From Bacilli bacterium (GTDB taxonomy: Bacteria; Bacillota_I; Bacilli_A; RF39; UBA660), in NCBI GenBank assembly GCA_016283075.1, contig JAEEMF010000040.1:470-64469 (forward strand): 64,000 bases of DNA. Direction: 5' to 3'. Shown in pieces: positions 4,094 through 37,706 of the stretch. Position numbers and translations under genes: made by a program. Position 1 is the stretch's first letter; the number at the start of each line of letters is the position of its first letter. Below the pieces are notes generated by a model. The model was not told where the DNA came from and ran no database searches. It worked only from the letters and a program-made list of their open reading frames with translations.

Positions 4094-5297
4094 GTTATTA
4101 TTTCTAACACTTTTAACTATTTTATTTATTCCAGTAGGTGCTTTAGCTTTTGAAGAGTATGATGATAAAATTTATGATATTGTAGGAGAAAAGAAAAGTG
4201 ATGTTGTTACAGTATATTTCTTCTATAGTAGTGCTTGTCCGCACTGTAAGAAAGAAAACCAATTCTTAGATACTCTTGAAGAAGAAAGAAAAGATATTGT
4301 TATAAAAAGATATGAAGTTACTTCTAGTAGTACTAATTCTGAATACTTAAGAAAAGCAAAAGAAAGATTAGGTATTACTTCACAAGGAGTTCCTTTTACA
4401 GTAATAGGAGATCACTATTATCAAGGATATAGTGATGGTATAGGAACTAGGATAAAAAGAACTACTTATGATTATCTTGGTATTGATATAGATGAAAACT
4501 ATTTTAATGATGATGATAATAACAAGAATAAAGAGACTGAAAAAGATAATTCTTTTGAACTTCCTTTGTTTGGTAAAGTAGATGCTAAAAAAATTAGTAT
4601 TCCACTAGTTGCAGTAGTACTTGGTTTAATAGATGGATTTAATCCTTGTGCTATGTGGGTTCTTTTATTCTTAATTAGTATGCTTTTAAATATGAAGGAT
4701 AGAAAGAAGATGTGGATACTAGGATTTACTTTCTTATTTACATCTGCCTTTATATATTTCTTAGCTATGCTTGGTATATCAATTGTAGTTGGTATGGATA
4801 AGATTCCTTGGATAAGACTTCTTATTGCTGTAGTTGCTATAGTTGGAGGACTTTTAAATTTAAGAAGTTATATAAATACTCCTAAAGATGGTTGCCAGGT
4901 AGTAGATGAAAAGAAAAGAAAGAAATATTTAACAAAGATAAAAGCCTTTACTAGTGAAGCTAATTTAGCTTTAGCATTAGTAGGTGTTATAGGACTTGCT
5001 GCGAGTGTTAATTTAGTAGAACTTGCTTGCTCTGCAGGATTCCCTACAATCTTTGTAGAAATACTTACTATTAATAATATAACAAGCGTTATGAAAATAC
5101 TTTATATTCTTTTATATATAGTATTCTTCTTACTTGATGATATGGTTGTATTTATTGTAGCAATGACTTCTTTAAAAGTAACAGGTATTACTACTAAATA
5201 TAATCGTTTATCACATTTAGTAGGTGGTATTTTAATGATATTAATAGGTATTTTATTAGTATTTAAACCTGAATGGATAATGTTTAACTTTAGTTAA
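4077..5297 (+). CDS. membrane thiol-disulfide oxidoreductase: exported Trx/Grx-like domain (CPHC) fused to a CcdA/DsbD-like transmembrane domain
   Basis: Signal peptide, then YFFYSSACPHCKKE. A polytopic domain follows, with conserved Cys motifs GFNPCAMW and ELACSAGFP as in the DsbD/CcdA electron-transfer cores. The gene overlaps the upstream trx gene by 17 nt. Confidence 0.7.
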   Translation: MKLKIKLLFLTLLTILFIPVGALAFEEYDDKIYDIVGEKKSDVVTVYFFYSSACPHCKKENQFLDTLEEERKDIVIKRYEVTSSSTNSEYLRKAKERLGITSQGVPFTVIGDHYYQGYSDGIGTRIKRTTYDYLGIDIDENYFNDDDNNKNKETEKDNSFELPLFGKVDAKKISIPLVAVVLGLIDGFNPCAMWVLLFLISMLLNMKDRKKMWILGFTFLFTSAFIYFLAMLGISIVVGMDKIPWIRLLIAVVAIVGGLLNLRSYINTPKDGCQVVDEKKRKKYLTKIKAFTSEANLALALVGVIGLAASVNLVELACSAGFPTIFVEILTINNITSVMKILYILLYIVFFLLDDMVVFIVAMTSLKVTGITTKYNRLSHLVGGILMILIGILLVFKPEWIMFNFS

Positions 5298-31352: not shown

Positions 31353-31798
31353 TGAGAGTAATACTTCAAAGAAGTAGAAAATCTAGTGTATCAGTAGATG
31401 ATAAGGTAGTAGGTAAAATAGATTCAGGTTTAGTAGTTTTAGTAGGTTTTACTTTTAATGATAATGAAGAAATAATTGATAAAATGATTAATAAAGTAAT
31501 AAACCTAAGAATCTTTAATGATGAAAATGGTGTTATGAATAAATCTCTTCTAGATGTAAATGGAGAAATACTTTCTATATCTCAGTTTACTTTATATGCG
31601 GATACTAGAAAAGGTAGAAGACCTAGTTATGTAAATGCACTAGGAGGAGAAGAAGCTACTAAATTATATGATATCTTTAATGATAAATTAAGAAGTTTAG
31701 GATTGCATGTTGAGACTGGAATATTTGGAGCGGATATGCAGGTATCCATCCATAATGATGGTCCAACTACAATTGCAATTGATAGTGAAAATTTATAA
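31352..31798 (+). CDS. dtd: D-aminoacyl-tRNA deacylase
   Basis: MRVILQR..., SQFTLYADTRKGRRPSY, NDGPTT. 148 aa. Confidence 0.95.
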   Translation: MRVILQRSRKSSVSVDDKVVGKIDSGLVVLVGFTFNDNEEIIDKMINKVINLRIFNDENGVMNKSLLDVNGEILSISQFTLYADTRKGRRPSYVNALGGEEATKLYDIFNDKLRSLGLHVETGIFGADMQVSIHNDGPTTIAIDSENL

Positions 31799-31800
31799 AA

Positions 31801-31829
31801 TTAGTCAAATATTATTGACTAATTTTTTT
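31801..31829 (+). terminator. dtd intrinsic terminator
   Basis: TTAGTCAA-atatta-TTGACTAA hairpin followed by T7. Confidence 0.8.
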
Positions 31830-31849
31830 ATATACTTTATACTACTATT

Positions 31850-32044
31850 TAATATTTAGTAGTTTAAAAAGTTATTTATTAGGCATAGAGATAATGTGGC
31901 TGGTGTAAACATAACTAATGGTAGCTGTATATGGATCTACATAAAAAAATAATCGTATTTCTGCGTTAAAGAATAGAGTTAGATAAAATCTATAAAGTAA
32001 GGTGGTACCGCGTTCTAGGACGCCCTTATGCTATAGATTTTTTG
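31850..32044 (+). promoter_or_regulatory. T-box leader (tRNA-sensing riboswitch)
   Basis: Promoter TTGACT(31815)-17-TATACT(31838). Stem I elements AGAGA and GGUGUAA (GNUGNRA). T-box core AAGGUGGUACCGCG at 31999-32012 forms the canonical antiterminator TAAGG[UGGUACC]GCG-loop-CGCCCUUA. The outer helix AUCUAUA/UAUAGAU is followed by U6. Confidence 0.8.
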
Positions 32045-32063
32045 CGTTTTAAGGAGGGTAATC

Positions 32064-34046
32064 ATGGAAGAAGAATATGTTGGAACTTTATTTCAAAGAA
32101 TTAGATTAAGTGAAACATTATTTGTATATAAGCCAGTTAGTGCTTTAGATGGTTTTTTAATGACTATTTCTACTGATGATGCTAATATTCCAGATGACCC
32201 TAATGAAGATGAAAATGGATATTACTTTTTTACAGCAAATGGTTATTCTTATACACTACTTAGTAATGCTAATCAGTTTGATGAAGAATATGTAGTAGGT
32301 AACTTAAAACCAATAACTGAATTTGTAGATACAAGTGATGAAGTAGATTTAGATGAAGCATTAAATATATATTCAAATGAAACAGATAATGAAGTATACT
32401 TTGGTTCTACTGAAGATAATGCTAAATTAAAAATATTTAAAATAGAAAAAGACGAACTTATAGATGGTAATATGAGTTTTATTTCTTTTAATACTAGAAG
32501 TATATTTGATAATATCTTTAAAGAATTAGATACTAATAAAGAGAAAAAAATAGATGTAAAACTTGTTAAAGAGTTATTTCATATAGCAGAAAGTAATGTC
32601 TGCGCTTCAAAAGAATTAATTGGGTTAACAGCAACTACTCATGATTTTGAAGGAATACTTTCTTTCCTACATGATAAAGCAGAAGTTCTTACTAAATCAT
32701 TTTCAAATGATGAAGATATTAAAAACACATATGAATTCTTCGAAAACTATCTTACATCTTTTAGAAATATAAAAGATAATACATCTAAAGAAGTAGTAGC
32801 TCTTTATATAGAATTAATTAAACACTGTATTGATACTCATAAAGAAGATATAGATAAGCATATTGAGAATATTTGTAGATATTCTAACTATGAAAAGATA
32901 AAAGATGCTTTTGATGAATTAGAAGAATTTATTAGAAGTCATGAAAAGAGAACATATTCAGGTTTATATGAAAGATTAAATGAAGTTGTAATAGGACAAG
33001 AAGATGCTAAAAGAAATGTACTTGTATCTATCTTTAAAAGTGATAATGATGTTATAAATAAAAACAACTTATTACTAGTTGGTCCTTCTGGATCAGGTAA
33101 AACTTTAATAGCAGAAACATGTGCTGAATATTTAGACATTCCTTCTATAGTAGTTGATTCAACAACACTTTCTACTCCTGGTTATGTAGGACAAGATGTT
33201 GATCAGCAACTAGTTAGGCTTTTAGAAGCAGCAGGAGGAGACTTAGAAAAAGCCCAGAGGGGTATTATTATCTTTGATGAAATAGATAAAAAAGGATCAA
33301 AAGATAATGATGATGTATCTGGTAGAGGAGTTTTAAACTGCTTATTAGGATTTATAGAAGGAAGAAAATATCAACTTGTCTATAGAAATAGACTTGTTGA
33401 ATTTGATACTTCTAAACTTAAAATAATTATGACAGGTGCTTTTGCTAAAGTAGCAGAAGAACTAGTACTTGAAAATAAAAAAACTCATTATGGATTTATA
33501 TCAATAGATTCAAAAAATGAAGAAGTAAAAGTATCTTTATCTGATAAAGATATTACTACTAAAGGTGATATGCCTCCTGAATTTATTGGAAGAGTATTAA
33601 TAGTAAACTTAAGTAAATTAACTAAAGATAATGCTAAAGAATTAATGTATTATTCAGAAAGAAGTATTTTAAAAGATATATTTAATCTTTATATAAAATA
33701 TGATACAAAAGTATATTTTACTGAAGAATTTGTTGATGGTTTTATAAATTCTCTTTTTGATAATAAAGAAGATGAATTTGGTGCAAGAACTATTAATAAA
33801 AAAATATCTGAAGTACTTCTTTCAGCAGAATTCGAATTAATACTATCTTTAGATAAAGAAAATGGATACAAAGAAGTAGTAGTAGGAATAGAAGCACTTA
33901 CAGATCATAATAAAATATTATTTATATATGAAGATGGTACTTCAAAAGAACTTGGAGATATTATAAAAGAAGAGGAAGAAAAGAAGGCTAAAGCAAAAGC
34001 TATGAGAGATATACCAGAATTTATAAAAAGGAAGGTGAACCAGTAG
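32064..34046 (+). CDS. ClpX-family AAA+ ATPase paralog A, with a novel ~300-aa N-terminal region and no zinc-binding domain
   Basis: VIGQEDAKRNV; Walker A LLLVGPSGSGKTLIAE; pore-1 loop TPGYVGQDV; Walker B GIIIFDEIDK; DVSGRGVLNCLLGFIEG; DTSKLKIIMTGAFA; PPEFIGRV; GARTINK. All are collinear with E. coli ClpX motifs. Confidence 0.85.
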   Translation: MEEEYVGTLFQRIRLSETLFVYKPVSALDGFLMTISTDDANIPDDPNEDENGYYFFTANGYSYTLLSNANQFDEEYVVGNLKPITEFVDTSDEVDLDEALNIYSNETDNEVYFGSTEDNAKLKIFKIEKDELIDGNMSFISFNTRSIFDNIFKELDTNKEKKIDVKLVKELFHIAESNVCASKELIGLTATTHDFEGILSFLHDKAEVLTKSFSNDEDIKNTYEFFENYLTSFRNIKDNTSKEVVALYIELIKHCIDTHKEDIDKHIENICRYSNYEKIKDAFDELEEFIRSHEKRTYSGLYERLNEVVIGQEDAKRNVLVSIFKSDNDVINKNNLLLVGPSGSGKTLIAETCAEYLDIPSIVVDSTTLSTPGYVGQDVDQQLVRLLEAAGGDLEKAQRGIIIFDEIDKKGSKDNDDVSGRGVLNCLLGFIEGRKYQLVYRNRLVEFDTSKLKIIMTGAFAKVAEELVLENKKTHYGFISIDSKNEEVKVSLSDKDITTKGDMPPEFIGRVLIVNLSKLTKDNAKELMYYSERSILKDIFNLYIKYDTKVYFTEEFVDGFINSLFDNKEDEFGARTINKKISEVLLSAEFELILSLDKENGYKEVVVGIEALTDHNKILFIYEDGTSKELGDIIKEEEEKKAKAKAMRDIPEFIKRKVNQ

Positions 34047-36040
34047 TGGCAAAAAAAGAAGAAAGATATGCAATCCTTTATGATATAAATGCTGATGATG
34101 AATTCTATAGATATACACCAGTAGATGCTATAGAAGGTGAAATTATAAAAGAAGTAAGGAATGTATTTATAGATGGAGAGTGGGTTGATAAAGAAGTAGA
34201 TGTATTTGTTGCGTATGATAAAGATTTACATATTTATGAAAGATACGTAACTATGAAACACTCTGCAGAGCAAGATATGTGTGTAGGTAATATTATCACA
34301 CGTAAAGAACTTATCGAAAAATATCCTGATGTTAAAATACCACCAGGTGGCATTGGTCTTCAAGCGGAACTTCTTCATGCATTCTTCGAGGATTATAGAG
34401 ACTGTACTATTTGTAAACAAAGAGATTATTTTGATGATGAAGATGATTATGAAGAATCAACTTTTAAGTCTGACTGGTTACTTCAAGATCCTGAAAAGAT
34501 AACTTTAATTCGTTTACAAACTGCATGGGAATGTTCTTTTGATACAATTTCTGCATGTGAAGATGATGAAAAAATTTCTGAAGTATATGATTATCTAGTA
34601 GATATTTTAGATAGTATGTGTACTTATATTATGTGTTGTAAAGAACTTAGTGCAGTAGATAGAGAAAGTTATACAAATGCTTGCGATAATATAGCAAAAA
34701 GAATTATATATGCTAGTGATTTAACAGGGGTTCTTGAACAGGATAAAAAAATTGCTATGGAATTAAATAAAGAATTTAGAGCGTTATTTGATGATATAGC
34801 TGTTAAAACAGTAGAAGCTGCATCTTATATATTAAAAGAACCTAAGAAAGAAACAGCTACTGTTAAACCTTATAAAGATATAAATACTCTTTTAGGAAAT
34901 AGTAAGAAAACAAGACAAGAAATACTTGATGAACTTGATAAAACTGTTATTGGTCATGATGATGCTAAAATAAGATTACTTTCAGTAATTGAAAGTAACT
35001 CGACTATAGAACAAAAGAATAATATTGATGCAGTACTTTTAATAGGACCTTCTGGATGTGGTAAAACTCTTTTAGTAGAAACATTATCTAAGGTAATGGA
35101 TAAACCATTTGCATTAATTGATACTTTAGCTTTAACACCTGCTGGATATAAAGGTGTTGATCTTGAAAATGTATTAGCATTACAACTTTTAAGAAGTGCT
35201 AAAGGTGATGTTAAGAAAGCTGAAAGAGGAGTAGTATTCTTTGATGAATTTGATAAGAAAGCATCTACATCTGATAAAGAGTCAAATTTTGATAAAAGAA
35301 CTATTGATCAACTTTTAACATATATGTCTGGAACTAAATGTACTGTTGAGTATAATGGTAGAGATACTGAAGTAGATACAAGTTTTATTACATTTGTATT
35401 TGGTGGTTCATTTGCTGATATGATTAAGGCTATGATGGATAATAAAGAGAATGATGAATCATATAAAAGAACTACTATTGGTTTTATAAAAGATACTGCT
35501 AAAGAGATAAAAGATATTAATGAATATGATTTAAAATATCCAGAAAAAATTGAAGACGAGGATTTAGCAGTTCATGGTCATATGCGACCTGAAATGATTA
35601 ATAGAATTCCAACTAAGATAGTTATGCAAGGTGAAAATAGAATATCACTTAAAGATATTTTATTATATTCAACTGTTAGTCCTTTAGTATTTGAAGAAAA
35701 ACGTATTAACGCTAAGGGAGCTAATCTTGCTGTACTAGAAGAATTTATAGATCCTTTTGTAGAATCTGCATTTGGTAGAAAACAGTGTGGAAGATCTTTA
35801 AAAAATGGATTATTTCAAATAACAAGTCTTATTAATGATGTACTTGATGAATATCCAAGTAGATTTAAATATGCTGTACTTAATAAAGAATGCGTAAGTA
35901 ATCCTAGAGATGCTTTATTAATAGATTATGAAAATAATCGCTATACAGTAGGAGAACTTAAAGATGAAATTAAGAAAGCTAAAGAAGCTAAACCAAAAGA
36001 AAGTGTAATTAAAACTTATGCTTTTATACCTGAAAATTAG
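34046..36040 (+). CDS. ClpX-family AAA+ ATPase paralog B, more divergent, with a novel N-terminal region homologous to that of paralog A
   Basis: GTG start overlaps the upstream TAG (TAGTG) behind a GGAAGGTGA RBS. VIGHDDAKIRL; Walker A VLLIGPSGCGKTLLVE; pore loop PAGYKGVDL; Walker B GVVFFDEFDK; ITFVFGGSFA; TTIGF; RPEMINRIP; CGRSLKN. Confidence 0.85.
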   Translation: MAKKEERYAILYDINADDEFYRYTPVDAIEGEIIKEVRNVFIDGEWVDKEVDVFVAYDKDLHIYERYVTMKHSAEQDMCVGNIITRKELIEKYPDVKIPPGGIGLQAELLHAFFEDYRDCTICKQRDYFDDEDDYEESTFKSDWLLQDPEKITLIRLQTAWECSFDTISACEDDEKISEVYDYLVDILDSMCTYIMCCKELSAVDRESYTNACDNIAKRIIYASDLTGVLEQDKKIAMELNKEFRALFDDIAVKTVEAASYILKEPKKETATVKPYKDINTLLGNSKKTRQEILDELDKTVIGHDDAKIRLLSVIESNSTIEQKNNIDAVLLIGPSGCGKTLLVETLSKVMDKPFALIDTLALTPAGYKGVDLENVLALQLLRSAKGDVKKAERGVVFFDEFDKKASTSDKESNFDKRTIDQLLTYMSGTKCTVEYNGRDTEVDTSFITFVFGGSFADMIKAMMDNKENDESYKRTTIGFIKDTAKEIKDINEYDLKYPEKIEDEDLAVHGHMRPEMINRIPTKIVMQGENRISLKDILLYSTVSPLVFEEKRINAKGANLAVLEEFIDPFVESAFGRKQCGRSLKNGLFQITSLINDVLDEYPSRFKYAVLNKECVSNPRDALLIDYENNRYTVGELKDEIKKAKEAKPKESVIKTYAFIPEN

Positions 36041-36041
36041 G

Positions 36042-36070
36042 TTGACTTAATTAAAAAAAATAACTATAAT
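36042..36070 (+). promoter_or_regulatory. consensus-like sigma-A promoter between the ATPase pair and hisS
   Basis: TTGACT (36042-36047), an exact 17-nt spacer, then TATAAT (36065-36070). Confidence 0.6.
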
Positions 36071-36104
36071 TTATATGTAAATTATGTTATATAATTATTA
36101 CTTT

Positions 36105-36152
36105 AGTCTATGAAGTAAGGCTATATACCTTAGTTTATAGACTTTTGTTTTT
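36105..36152 (+). terminator. strong hairpin plus U-tract immediately upstream of hisS; a partial copy of the T-box terminator region
   Basis: AGTCTATGAAGTAAGG-ctatata-CCTTAGTTTATAGACT forms a 16-position stem with one mismatch, followed by TTTTGTTTTT. Both arms match the arms flanking the T-box core at 31987-32038. Confidence 0.75.
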
Positions 36153-36168
36153 AGAAAGAAGGAATATT

Positions 36169-37446
36169 ATGCAAAAACCTAAGGGAACATATGATGTATT
36201 TGGTGAAAGAGGAAAGAAAGAATTATATATTAGAGGATTAATGGAAACATTAATGAATAAATATAATTATGAGTATGTAGATACTCCTATCTTTGAAGCA
36301 AGTGAATTATTCCATAGAGGTGTAGGGGAAACTACTGATATCGTTACTAAAGAAACATATGACTTTGTAGATCGTGGAGAAAGAAACATGACTTTAAGAC
36401 CAGAAGGTACTGCTGGTGTAGTAAGAAGTTTTGTAGAAAACAAAATGTATGCTAGAGAATCTATGCCTGTTAAAGTATGGTACTTTGGACCAATGTTTAG
36501 ATACGAAAGACCACAATCTGGTAGATATAGACAATTCAAACAATTTGGTGTTGAAGTGTTTGGATCAGAAGATGCTTTAGTAGATGCAGAAGTAATTAGT
36601 ATTCCTGTAAATTTATATAAAATACTTGGTTTAAAAGGAATTAAAGTAAATATAAATTCACTAGGAGATAAAGAATCTAGAGAAAACTATAGAGAAGCTT
36701 TAATTAAACACTTTGAACCAGTAATCGATACATTATGTGAAGATTGTAAAGAAAGATTTAAAAAGAATCCTTTAAGAATCTTAGATTGTAAGATAGATGC
36801 AGATAAAGAAATAATGAAAACTGCACCTACTACAATTGATTACTTAAATGACGAAAGTAGAACACATTTTGAAAATGTTAAAAAATACTTAGAAGCACTT
36901 GGCATTGATTATGTAGTAAATCCAAGAGTTGTAAGAGGACTTGATTATTACACTCACACAGTATTTGAAGTAGAAGCAGATATTCCATCATTTGGAGCAC
37001 AAAATGTACTTTGTGGTGGAGGAAGATATAATGGTCTTGTTGAACAAGTAGGTGGGCCTAGTACAAATGGTGTAGGTTTTGCTCTTGGTTTTGAAAGATT
37101 AATTAATGCTTTAGAAGCTGAAAATATTGAACTACCATATGAAAAAGAAATAGATGCTTATGTAATACCAATGAGTGATAATGAAAAAGCATATGGATTT
37201 GATGTACTTCAAACACTTAGAATGTCAGGATTTAATGCTGATATAGATTACATGAGTCGTAAGATAGGCGGAAACTTTAAACAAGCTGATAGATTAAATT
37301 CTAAGTTTGTAATTATTATCGGTGAAGAAGAAACTAAATCTAATATTTTAACAATTAAAAATAATCGTACTAAAGAAGAATATAAAGTAAGCAAAGAACT
37401 TGTTATTGATTTCTTTGATGATAATTTAGAAAAAGAAGAACACTAA
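36169..37446 (+). CDS. hisS: histidine--tRNA ligase
   Basis: Class II aaRS motifs (MTLRPEGTAGVVR, FRYERPQSGRYRQFKQFG, GGGRYNGL). Start at 36169 follows a GAAGGAA RBS. Confidence 0.95.
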   Translation: MQKPKGTYDVFGERGKKELYIRGLMETLMNKYNYEYVDTPIFEASELFHRGVGETTDIVTKETYDFVDRGERNMTLRPEGTAGVVRSFVENKMYARESMPVKVWYFGPMFRYERPQSGRYRQFKQFGVEVFGSEDALVDAEVISIPVNLYKILGLKGIKVNINSLGDKESRENYREALIKHFEPVIDTLCEDCKERFKKNPLRILDCKIDADKEIMKTAPTTIDYLNDESRTHFENVKKYLEALGIDYVVNPRVVRGLDYYTHTVFEVEADIPSFGAQNVLCGGGRYNGLVEQVGGPSTNGVGFALGFERLINALEAENIELPYEKEIDAYVIPMSDNEKAYGFDVLQTLRMSGFNADIDYMSRKIGGNFKQADRLNSKFVIIIGEEETKSNILTIKNNRTKEEYKVSKELVIDFFDDNLEKEEH

Positions 37447-37468: not shown

Positions 37469-37529
37469 CTTTACACTCATACTTGTAAAGTCTCTTGGAA
37501 TAGATATATACATATGTTATAATATAATT

Positions 37530-37706
37530 GACTAAAAGATATGGTTGGAATTATTTGAAAAACCTACTAAAATAACGTATAGGGAATCTAATTTATATAT
37601 GGTGTTGAAAGCTTAACTTCGATTAAGAATCCTAAAGTATATAATGTGATACCCACCTGGGAGATCAGGTTTTATCGTTATGCCGCCGATTTTTTGGTCT
37701 TTTTTT
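37530..37706 (+). ncRNA. candidate 6S RNA (SsrS-like), about 177 nt
   Basis: Own promoter TTGGAA(37495)-17 nt containing TG-TATAAT(37518). The 5' end GACTAAAAGAT pairs with the 3' end ATTTTTTGGTC (11 bp). Further pairs are GGTTGG/CCGCC and AAAACCT/AGGTTTT, with an asymmetric central loop and a terminal arm TATAGGGAATCTAAT/ATTAAGAATCCTAAAGTATA, followed by a U-run. Its position between hisS and tcdA corresponds to B. subtilis 6S-1 (aspS-yrvM intergenic region). Confidence 0.4.

Follow-up and report, generated by a model that had tools for sequence, protein, structure and literature searches.

A divergent ortholog of Asp-type T-box leaders with a predicted nested terminator upstream of two ClpX-like AAA+ genes in a Bacilli bacterium

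The window analyzed here, a stretch of 64,000 nucleotides from a Bacilli bacterium (GCA_016283075.1, contig JAEEMF010000040.1), contains the gene order secDF, relA, dtd, leader, AAA-A, AAA-B, hisS, 6S RNA, in which AAA-A and AAA-B encode two AAA+ ATPases resembling the unfoldase ClpX. A first-pass annotation of the sequence had identified the leader as a T-box riboswitch, and the T-box core, the AGAGA and GNUGNRA boxes, the outer helix and the run of six U on which it relied are all present. The T-box covariance model, which it had named as a check, does score the region: positions 31853-32030 align end to end with RF00230 at 62.5 bits (E 2.2e-13, in a search of a 401-nt stretch), which is under the Rfam gathering cut-off of 93 bits but far beyond chance, and the element is a genuine T-box. 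It was equally right that the first downstream gene encodes a ClpX-like ATPase and is not hisS, since residues 298-615 of the 660-aa product form a ClpX-type module. On balance, we think it probable that the leader is a working class I (transcription-attenuating) T-box that would now govern only the two AAA+ genes. It is a variant of the known Asp-type T-box and not a new class.

The orthologous leaders described below score 93-110 bits against RF00230 (78.7 in L041), and we attribute the low score of the window's leader to a deviating specifier-loop region together with the missing Stem II and K-turn; Stem II proper is likewise absent from all the orthologs. In the RF00230 alignment the Stem I distal platform (AGAGA plus GGUGUAA) is present and aligned with a posterior probability of ~1, and when the modules are compared with the consensus of six orthologs, the distal platform (81% identity), the Stem IIA/B element (95%) and the 3' domain (76%) all lie in the normal range. 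Distal Stem I is nearest to that of the Asp leader in L027 (24 of 27 nt); a chimeric Stem I borrowed from another T-box class was considered and rejected, as this Asp leader gave the sole significant similarity. The 5' flank of Stem III reads AGAGU, where U replaces the G of the RRRxG motif (PMC7583486). The folding energy of the whole leader is uninformative (z = 0.31).

The same-species metagenome contigs L001 and L002, which are ~98% identical to the window in relA and dtd, share both the leader and its synteny. Beyond the species, a protein search and a scan of named genomes recovered full-length AAA relatives at ~30% identity, mostly in metagenome-assembled genomes of uncultured gut 'Bacilli' and Mycoplasmatota, and the AAA gene is immediately preceded by a T-box (79-110 bits) in L003, L205, L005, L007, L019/L084, L027, L041, L092/L140, L104 and L145. 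According to Pfam calls and BLAST assignments of the surrounding genes, orthologous leaders head operons of the form 'ClpX-like AAA+ gene - hisS - aspS' in at least ten related low-GC gut Bacilli lineages. The AAA gene is followed by hisS and then aspS in L005, L007, L027, L104, L140 and L145, by hisS, with either aspS lying past another open reading frame (ORF) or the contig coming to its end, in L084 and L019, and by a short AspRS-like gene in L003 and L205. The placement in front of AAA+ genes to which the first-pass annotation had drawn attention is real, in that these genes come first under the leader, but it is no one-off, the order T-box - AAA+ - hisS - aspS being conserved in the clade. 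All these leaders have a canonical specifier loop, AGAGUA / GAA-GAC-A (GAA-GAU-A in L041), that is, an Asp specifier, extended to GACAC in L003, L007 and L205 and to GACAU in L005, L019, L027 and others, which bears out the annotation's doubt that the specifier was His. Asp-type leaders also precede hisS-aspS or aspS, with no AAA gene, in L158, L087 and L097. PMC5313534, citing Gutierrez-Preciado 2009, describes the hisS-aspS leaders of bacilli and lactobacilli as carrying GACAC in the specifier loop and probably responding mainly to tRNA-Asp; PMC4342826 cites the same work for this leader type. As the window's leader belongs to this Asp (GAC) type, the lack of a His codon is to be expected. 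From synteny and alignment we regard its orthology with the Asp-type hisS-aspS leaders as settled. In the window species, the AAA gene appears to have been duplicated into AAA-A and AAA-B, hisS has apparently come to lie behind a promoter of its own and a copy of the terminator hairpin that lacks the sensor, and aspS seems to have left the locus. A 6S RNA directly follows the end of hisS/aspS in the window (37526-37704), in L001 (13471-13650) and in L005 (9751-9934), with scores of 77, 79 and 66 bits, so that its position is conserved among distant members of the clade.

An ordinary hisS leader, sensing tRNA-His via CAU-A (31940-43) and reaching hisS by read-through over the AAA genes, would fit the presence of hisS downstream on the same strand, a relA-dtd-leader-hisS synteny that resembles Bacillus, and the dual His/Asp reading proposed for GACAC leaders (PMC4342826). 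We consider this extremely unlikely, because the CAU lies outside the specifier loop and partly in the basal helix, is removed by the deletion of A31941 in a sister species (described below), and is replaced as a candidate by GAC in canonical context in the orthologs. Furthermore, hisS has its own promoter (TTGACT-17-TATAAT at 36042-70, 11/12 matches), and a hairpin, AGUCUAUGAAGUAAGG-CUAUAUA-CCUUAGUUUAUAGACU at 36105-44 (-17.8 kcal/mol), followed by the U-run UUUUGUUUUU, stands before the gene, so read-through from the T-box would stop there. By homology this hairpin corresponds to the lower half of the leader's own terminator, minus the T-box bulge and A2, and conservation of the spacer in L001 reaches 99%. 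The spacer was also considered as the site of a second T-box, which was rejected, there being no Rfam match at E <= 10 and homology to the lower terminator hairpin alone. Past hisS come a terminator and the 6S RNA, with no aspS. We regard the transcriptional uncoupling of hisS from the leader as settled, as far as sequence can settle it; with hisS behind its own hairpin and no aspS at the locus, the cargo of the leader would therefore be the two AAA+ genes. Two further observations concern the spacer itself: the strong promoter leads straight into the hairpin and U-run (36042-36169), and a 9-codon ORF (MLYNYYFSL), lacking a Shine-Dalgarno (SD) sequence, ends within the 5' strand of the hairpin.

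Both regulated proteins share with ClpX the AAA+ module, a GYVG-type pore loop and a YGF/IGF loop at the ClpP-docking position, and residues 298-615 of AAA-A match solved ClpX chains (E 7e-37; Pfam AAA_2). They differ from ClpX at the N-terminus, where Pfam gave no zf-C4_ClpX match, the C4 zinc-binding domain being replaced by a beta-rich domain of ~130 aa without fold relatives and a helical linker of ~160 aa. The first 133 residues of AAA-A (32064-32462) form a confidently predicted beta-rich domain (predicted local distance difference test mostly 72-93) that is conserved in the family, with P24, G30 and Y63 invariant; it had no Pfam match, and a fold search of the PDB returned a best E of 0.05 with TM < 0.25. 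Between the window (32064-36040) and L001 (8001-11986), AAA-A and AAA-B are 94% and 92% identical, against 98% for relA, dtd and secDF, and synonymous divergence (dS) is 0.15 in the AAA genes against 0.06-0.09 in their neighbors. The ratio of nonsynonymous to synonymous divergence (dN/dS) is 0.29 for AAA-A and 0.44 for AAA-B (neighbors 0.04-0.13), and their N-terminal halves evolve fastest (0.39 and 0.51). The genes are intact in all strains, under selection that is purifying but relaxed, and with such ratios they are presumably expressed.

Table 1. Features of the leader and the genes downstream of it, in window coordinates.
Feature	Position	Strand	Basis and remarks
dtd terminator hairpin AUUAGUCAA-AUAUUA-UUGACUAAU and U-run	31800..31829	+	read from sequence
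Sigma-70-type promoter TTGACT-17-TATACT	31815..31843	+	10/12 matches
Stem I	31855..31945	+	model alignment and folds
Stem I basal helix, UUUAGUAG with CUAC-A-UAAA	31855-62 with 31937-45	+	model alignment and folds
Stem I helix 1, AGUUAUU with GGUAGCU	31870-76 with 31920-26	+	model alignment and folds
AG bulge AGAGA	31887-31891	+	read from sequence, model alignment
Stem I distal loop GGCUGGUGUAAA	31898-31909	+	model alignment
GGUGUAA (GNUGNRA box)	31902-31908	+	read from sequence, model alignment
Specifier loop 3' strand GUAUAUGGAU	31927..31936	+	model alignment, ortholog comparison
GGAUCUACAUAAAA	31933-31946	+	read from sequence
Stem IIA/B element with F-box UCGUAUUUCUGCGUUAA	31953..31969	+	model alignment; 95% identical to ortholog consensus
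Stem III UAGAU-AAA-AUCUA, AA on 3' flank	31980..31992	+	model alignment and folds
Putative nested terminator, AUCUAUA (31988-94, Stem III 3' strand) with UAUAGAU (32032-38) around the antiterminator	31988..32043	+	fold, covariation, lineage leaders
Antiterminator, A1 UAAGG/CCUUA, A2 GCGU/ACGC	31998..32028	+	sequence and model alignment; invariant in orthologs
T-box bulge UGGUACC between A1 and A2	32003-32009	+	invariant columns in ortholog alignment
U6 run	32038-32043	+	read from sequence
Shine-Dalgarno AAGGAGGG of AAA-A	32051..32058	+	read from sequence; ATG at 32064
AAA-A, 660 aa	32064..34046	+	beta-rich N-terminal domain 1-133, helical linker, ClpX-type AAA+ 298-615, YGF loop
AAA-B, 664 aa	34046..36040	+	AAA-A paralog, 23% identity; IGF loop; start overlaps AAA-A stop
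hisS spacer	36042..36153	+	promoter, hairpin and U-run
hisS (histidyl-tRNA synthetase)	36170..37446	+	ancestral leader cargo, 4.1 kb downstream

The promoter of the leader overlaps the dtd terminator hairpin, whose 3' arm TTGACT is also the -35 box (31800-31843), and transcription should start near 31850, just before the model match at 31853. The hairpin is 100% conserved in L001 and L002; during the covariance-model search it gave a spurious match at 31799-31828.

In a canonical T-box the 5' strand of the terminator is the 3' strand of A1/A2 (PMC7583486). Before the U-run of the window's leader no complement of the A1/A2 3' strand is found, as a canonical, mutually exclusive terminator would have. 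What lies there in all orthologs is a 7-8 nt element of the UAUAGAU type that repeats the 5' strand of Stem III in direct orientation and complements its 3' strand, and the resulting helix would enclose the antiterminator. The exclusive partner of this nested terminator is Stem III, not A1/A2. The first-pass annotation had seen that the terminator builds on the antiterminator helix, which is correct, but had found no clearly exclusive alternative to it, which Stem III provides. The minimum free energy (MFE) fold of a 79-nt segment, which contains the nested helix, is -20.4 kcal/mol, compared with -7.2 for Stem III plus A1 plus A2, and this difference suggests that the default state of the leader is OFF.

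A metagenome scan with the shared core ATCTATRAANTAAGGTGGYACCRCG recovered at least 120 contigs, whose leaders precede varied genes; among these are synthetase operons, with specifiers of the Ile, Phe, Met, Tyr and Val types. A nested helix of at least 7 bp is present in 49 of 105 distinct leaders, whereas shuffled spacers averaged 1.7 and reached at most 6; a first classification of 66 leaders had counted 36 as nested, 19 as canonical and 11 as unclear. Position 7 of the nested helix covaries, with 22 A-U, 22 G-C and 6 G-U pairs and no mismatches (Fisher p = 5e-9), and nested helices built from independent sequences occur in L169 and L171 (GUAUUAUG with CAUAAUAC in L171), two T-boxes that fall outside the search pattern. 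From these alignments we regard it as settled that the predicted nested terminator is a recurrent, conserved and covarying design of the lineage; in the T-box literature searched, no description of a nested or Stem III-competing terminator was found. The 25-nt block ATCTATRAANTAAGGTGGYACCRCG itself, which comprises the Stem III 3' strand, the linker and the T-box bulge, is nearly unchanged across many specificities (L084-L203), a uniformity that is unusual given that Stem III is normally variable. T-box operons of the lineage also often open with an unrelated small gene (metagenome loci L088, L107, L111, L116 and L123), the pairs of first gene and synthetase being dUTPase-metS, HAD hydrolase-pheST, CYTH protein-tyrS and HD protein-848-aa ORF (probably valS); many such first genes are nucleotide hydrolases.

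The same 3' domain could in principle act on translation, the A1 CCCUUA strand pairing with the SD sequence AAGGAGGG when tRNA is absent. CCUUA (32024-28) is indeed complementary to UAAGG (32050-54), as the annotation had noted in leaving the mechanism undecided, and pyrimidine-rich A1 3' strands are natural anti-SD sequences. Translational control nonetheless appears very unlikely to us. The tRNA-free conformer already pairs CCUUA inside the nested hairpin, and transcriptional control is the simplest reading and the one we favor, because the conserved hairpin and its adjoining U-run lie upstream of the SD in every ortholog and the complementarity to the SD is not kept, most orthologs having UAGGAGGG, which pairs only with a bulge.

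We turn to the identity of the tRNA. In the orthologs the strands of the specifier loop read AAGAGUA and GAAGACA, whereas the window has UUUAAAA as its 5' strand and, as its 3' strand, GUAUAUGGAU, which is 3 nt longer and contains the triplets UAU, AUG, UGG, GGA and GAU. In an ungapped comparison GAU (31934-36) falls where the ancestral GAC stood, at the 16-nt distance ahead of the IIA/B element that L019 also shows. The window therefore reads GAUCU, not GACAC, at the specifier, and strains from two independent samples (X3 and X8) have 31936 U>C, which turns GAU into GAC and the whole into GACCU. Our best guess is that the tRNA sensed is most probably still tRNA-Asp, read through GAU/GAC at 31934-36. 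The candidates offered by the first-pass annotation, UAC-A and CAU-A, do not hold up, for UAC (31938-40) is inside the basal helix GUAG/CUAC and CAU (31940-42) straddles its 3' end, both outside the specifier loop. The annotation had also seen a conflict between the variable U of the bulge and the C73 of tRNA-His. UGGU is the norm of the clade, and several orthologs have UGGC instead. It is established that bacterial tRNA-Asp has G73 as its discriminator, with which UGGU is compatible through a G:U wobble; as UGGU and UGGC both pair with it, the concern over C73 does not apply. TBDB allows G:U at the discriminator position and applies no discriminator matching to His leaders (PMC7778990). A search for tRNA-Asp, tRNA-His and tRNA-Tyr genes of related Bacilli with ARAGORN found none in 204 sequences.

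A switch of specificity to an A73 tRNA, with which UGGU would form a Watson-Crick pair, deserves consideration, either tRNA-Tyr via UAU (31930-32) or tRNA-Met via AUG-G (31931-34). UAU stands at the canonical spacing after helix 1 and is followed by G, the RNAfold MFE structure also presents it as G-UAU-A, and GUA-UAU-G would mimic GAA-NNN-R in a 7-nt loop if the helix GAUCUAC/GUAGUUU forms; this helix, however, contains a U-U mismatch. For Met, the Rfam alignment places AUG-G in the codon columns, and Met leaders of the same lineage read AUG-G. Both triplets are altered in the sister species (UAU to AAA or AAG, AUG to AGG), Stem I has no similarity to Met or Tyr leaders, and only 1% of Tyr specifiers are UAU (PMC7778990), so that we judge either switch improbable. 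Gly (GGA/GGG) is the sole amino acid whose codons are common to the window and the sister species; it was set aside, as U73, which is carried by bacterial tRNA-Gly, is unsuited to UGGU.

The evidence from variation comes first from within the species. The locus was found in 20 DNA metagenome runs and in 0 RNA runs. Helix 1 is kept by its polymorphisms (31875 U>C changes U-G to C-G, and 31924 G>A changes U-G to U-A). Compared with L001, the window's leader shows 4 differences in 211 sites, against a dS of 0.06-0.09 in the neighboring genes, and three of the four are in proximal Stem I; as L001 and L002 are 98% identical to the window, selection on single loop positions is beyond the resolution of these genomes. 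A 400-nt contig from bovine-gut run X10, aligned to window positions 31768-32047 and ~85% identical in the leader, takes in the leader and its promoter together with the 31 nt at the end of dtd, and is here taken as the ortholog of a sister species. The 22 substitutions and 15 indels listed for it are not spread evenly: ~22 changes fall in the 64 nt of proximal Stem I, 1 in the 31 nt of the distal platform and ~6 in the 3' half, which is 100 nt long. The basal helix is retained as UUUGGUAG/CUACUAAA through 31858 A>G and loss of the bulged A31941 (the deletion that destroys CAU), helix 1 is maintained, and Stem III becomes UAGA-GAAA-UCUA, with a GAAA tetraloop. Taken at face value, this single contig, of 3.2x depth and rebuilt from a list of differences, suggests that the tRNA-contacting modules and the helices are under cross-species selection, yet that no codon is conserved.

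Several observations weigh against a working leader that reads tRNA-Asp. At the level of the whole element, RF00230 did not exceed its gathering score in an Rfam scan of the full window, and a base as A/U-rich as that of the nested hairpin is not usual in intrinsic terminators. Within the specifier loop, the S-turn (AGUA/GAA) is missing from both strands, GAU adjoins the basal helix GUAG/CUAC, so that the base after it is a paired C and not the purine expected there, it begins 25 nt past GGUGNAA rather than the 22-24 nt seen in the orthologs, and under the TBDB frame rule frame 0 is GGA, GAU being found only in the +1 frame and UGG in the -1 frame. Five of the eight polymorphic sites within the species are in proximal Stem I, a clustering that suggests relaxed constraint there. 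Finally, the 3' loop of the sister species, AAAAAGGG|CUAC, contains no Asp codon (GAU) and no UAU, AUG or UGG. The loss of the S-turn and of the trailing purine makes the Asp reading non-canonical and possibly weak, and it is mainly the sister-species contig, which keeps no codon, that prevents us from claiming this reading with high confidence.

The same observations suggest that the specifier domain may have decayed, leaving either a constitutive attenuator that sets low AAA expression or a sensor that is blind to identity and responds to whatever uncharged tRNA can dock at the elbow platform and pair with UGGU. Consistent with decay are the lost S-turn, the 3 extra loop nucleotides, the absence of any codon common to the window and the sister species, the concentration of polymorphisms in proximal Stem I, the relaxed constraint on the AAA genes, and the repeated loss of the sensor within the clade: the window's hisS spacer lacks a T-box, L204, which holds the nearest relative of AAA-A, has two AAA genes and hisS behind promoter-hairpin leaders without a T-box, and L004 has none either. 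A dead sensor would not be expected to conserve its platform, IIA/B element, Stem III and bulge across species, nor to keep the helices of proximal Stem I through compensatory changes, and the copies that have fully decayed deleted the platform, IIA/B element, Stem III and bulge. Moreover, we know of no T-box that works without contact between specifier and anticodon. We therefore regard decay of the specifier as unlikely overall, though it is an explanation to be taken seriously. As to L204 itself, a different AAA gene (480 aa, AAA_lid_6) lies ahead of its ClpX-like gene and hisS, a promoter-like stretch with a hairpin and U-run precedes the AAA pair (1000-1100), and a second hairpin and U-run lie between the ClpX-like gene and hisS (4440-4520).

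For the reading that we prefer, a working Asp-type attenuator, a simple sequence of events can be proposed. Transcription would begin near 31850, and the Stem I distal platform would dock the tRNA elbow. The NCCA end of uncharged tRNA would then pair with UGGU in the bulge, and this pairing may lock Stem III, the purines beside it and helices A1 and A2 in the discriminator fold; binding of the tRNA 3' end requires Stem III (PMC7583486). Where this lock is not formed, UAUAGAU (32032-38) would displace the identical 5' strand of Stem III and pair with AUCUAUA, so extending A1 into a long hairpin before the U-run, at which RNA polymerase would be expected to terminate. A more speculative version, to which we give little weight, is that the T-box is blind to identity, retaining the elbow platform and the sensor of the tRNA 3' end while reading no anticodon, and that any uncharged A73 or G73 tRNA switches on the pair of ClpX-like unfoldases next to relA.

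The closest known system is the hisS-aspS leader with GACAC. It shares with the window the slot relA-dtd-leader-...-hisS, and the orthologs of the window's leader carry GAC(A/C) and are followed by hisS and aspS; in these orthologs, as in the known system, one leader serves two synthetases and would respond mainly to tRNA-Asp. The difference is that throughout the clade the first cistron is a ClpX-like AAA+ gene, and that in the window species the leader no longer connects to hisS, the locus lacks aspS and GACAC has given way to GAUCU without an S-turn. With class I T-boxes such as B. subtilis tyrS and glyQS, the window has in common the AG bulge/distal loop platform, the F-box and IIA/B element, Stem III, the UGGNACC bulge between A1 and A2 and a terminator with a U-run; unlike them it has no K-turn, Stem II or S-turn, and the 5' strand of its terminator is the 3' strand of Stem III, so that the antiterminator is enclosed. 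Stem Sa of the S. aureus glyS T-box (PMC4574755, PMC9177973) is likewise a lineage-specific remodeling of the terminator and antiterminator of a standard T-box, but there an additional stem sits inside the domain, whereas the window's leader has no insertion and differs in what its terminator pairs with. The translational T-boxes of actinobacterial ileS are also reduced, and their A1 3' strand can serve as an anti-SD; those leaders lack the distal platform and the terminator and have a clear specifier, in contrast to the window's leader, which keeps the platform and places a U-run terminator before the SD.

The known targets of T-boxes are synthetases, amino-acid biosynthesis genes and transporters. 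In this clade the first cistron behind the Asp-type leader is a ClpX-like unfoldase whose N-terminal domain is new, and it has kept that place across a deep divergence (AAA proteins ~30% identical). In about half of the T-boxes of the lineage, including those of essential synthetase operons, the terminator encloses the antiterminator and would compete with Stem III. A finding of 2019 reportedly makes Stem III part of the charging sensor; the nested terminator fits this and offers a simple strand-exchange model. Since every tRNA-contacting module of the window's leader is conserved except the codon, the leader also constitutes a natural experiment on the contribution of the specifier. Were the identity-blind version to prove true, the leader would be a general sensor that 'charging has failed', linking protein unfolding and degradation to tRNA charging and operating by the Stem III strand-exchange terminator used in about half of the T-boxes of the lineage. 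In the window species, where the unfoldases would be the sole remaining cargo, the leader may couple a machine for unfolding or proteolysis directly with the charging of tRNA.

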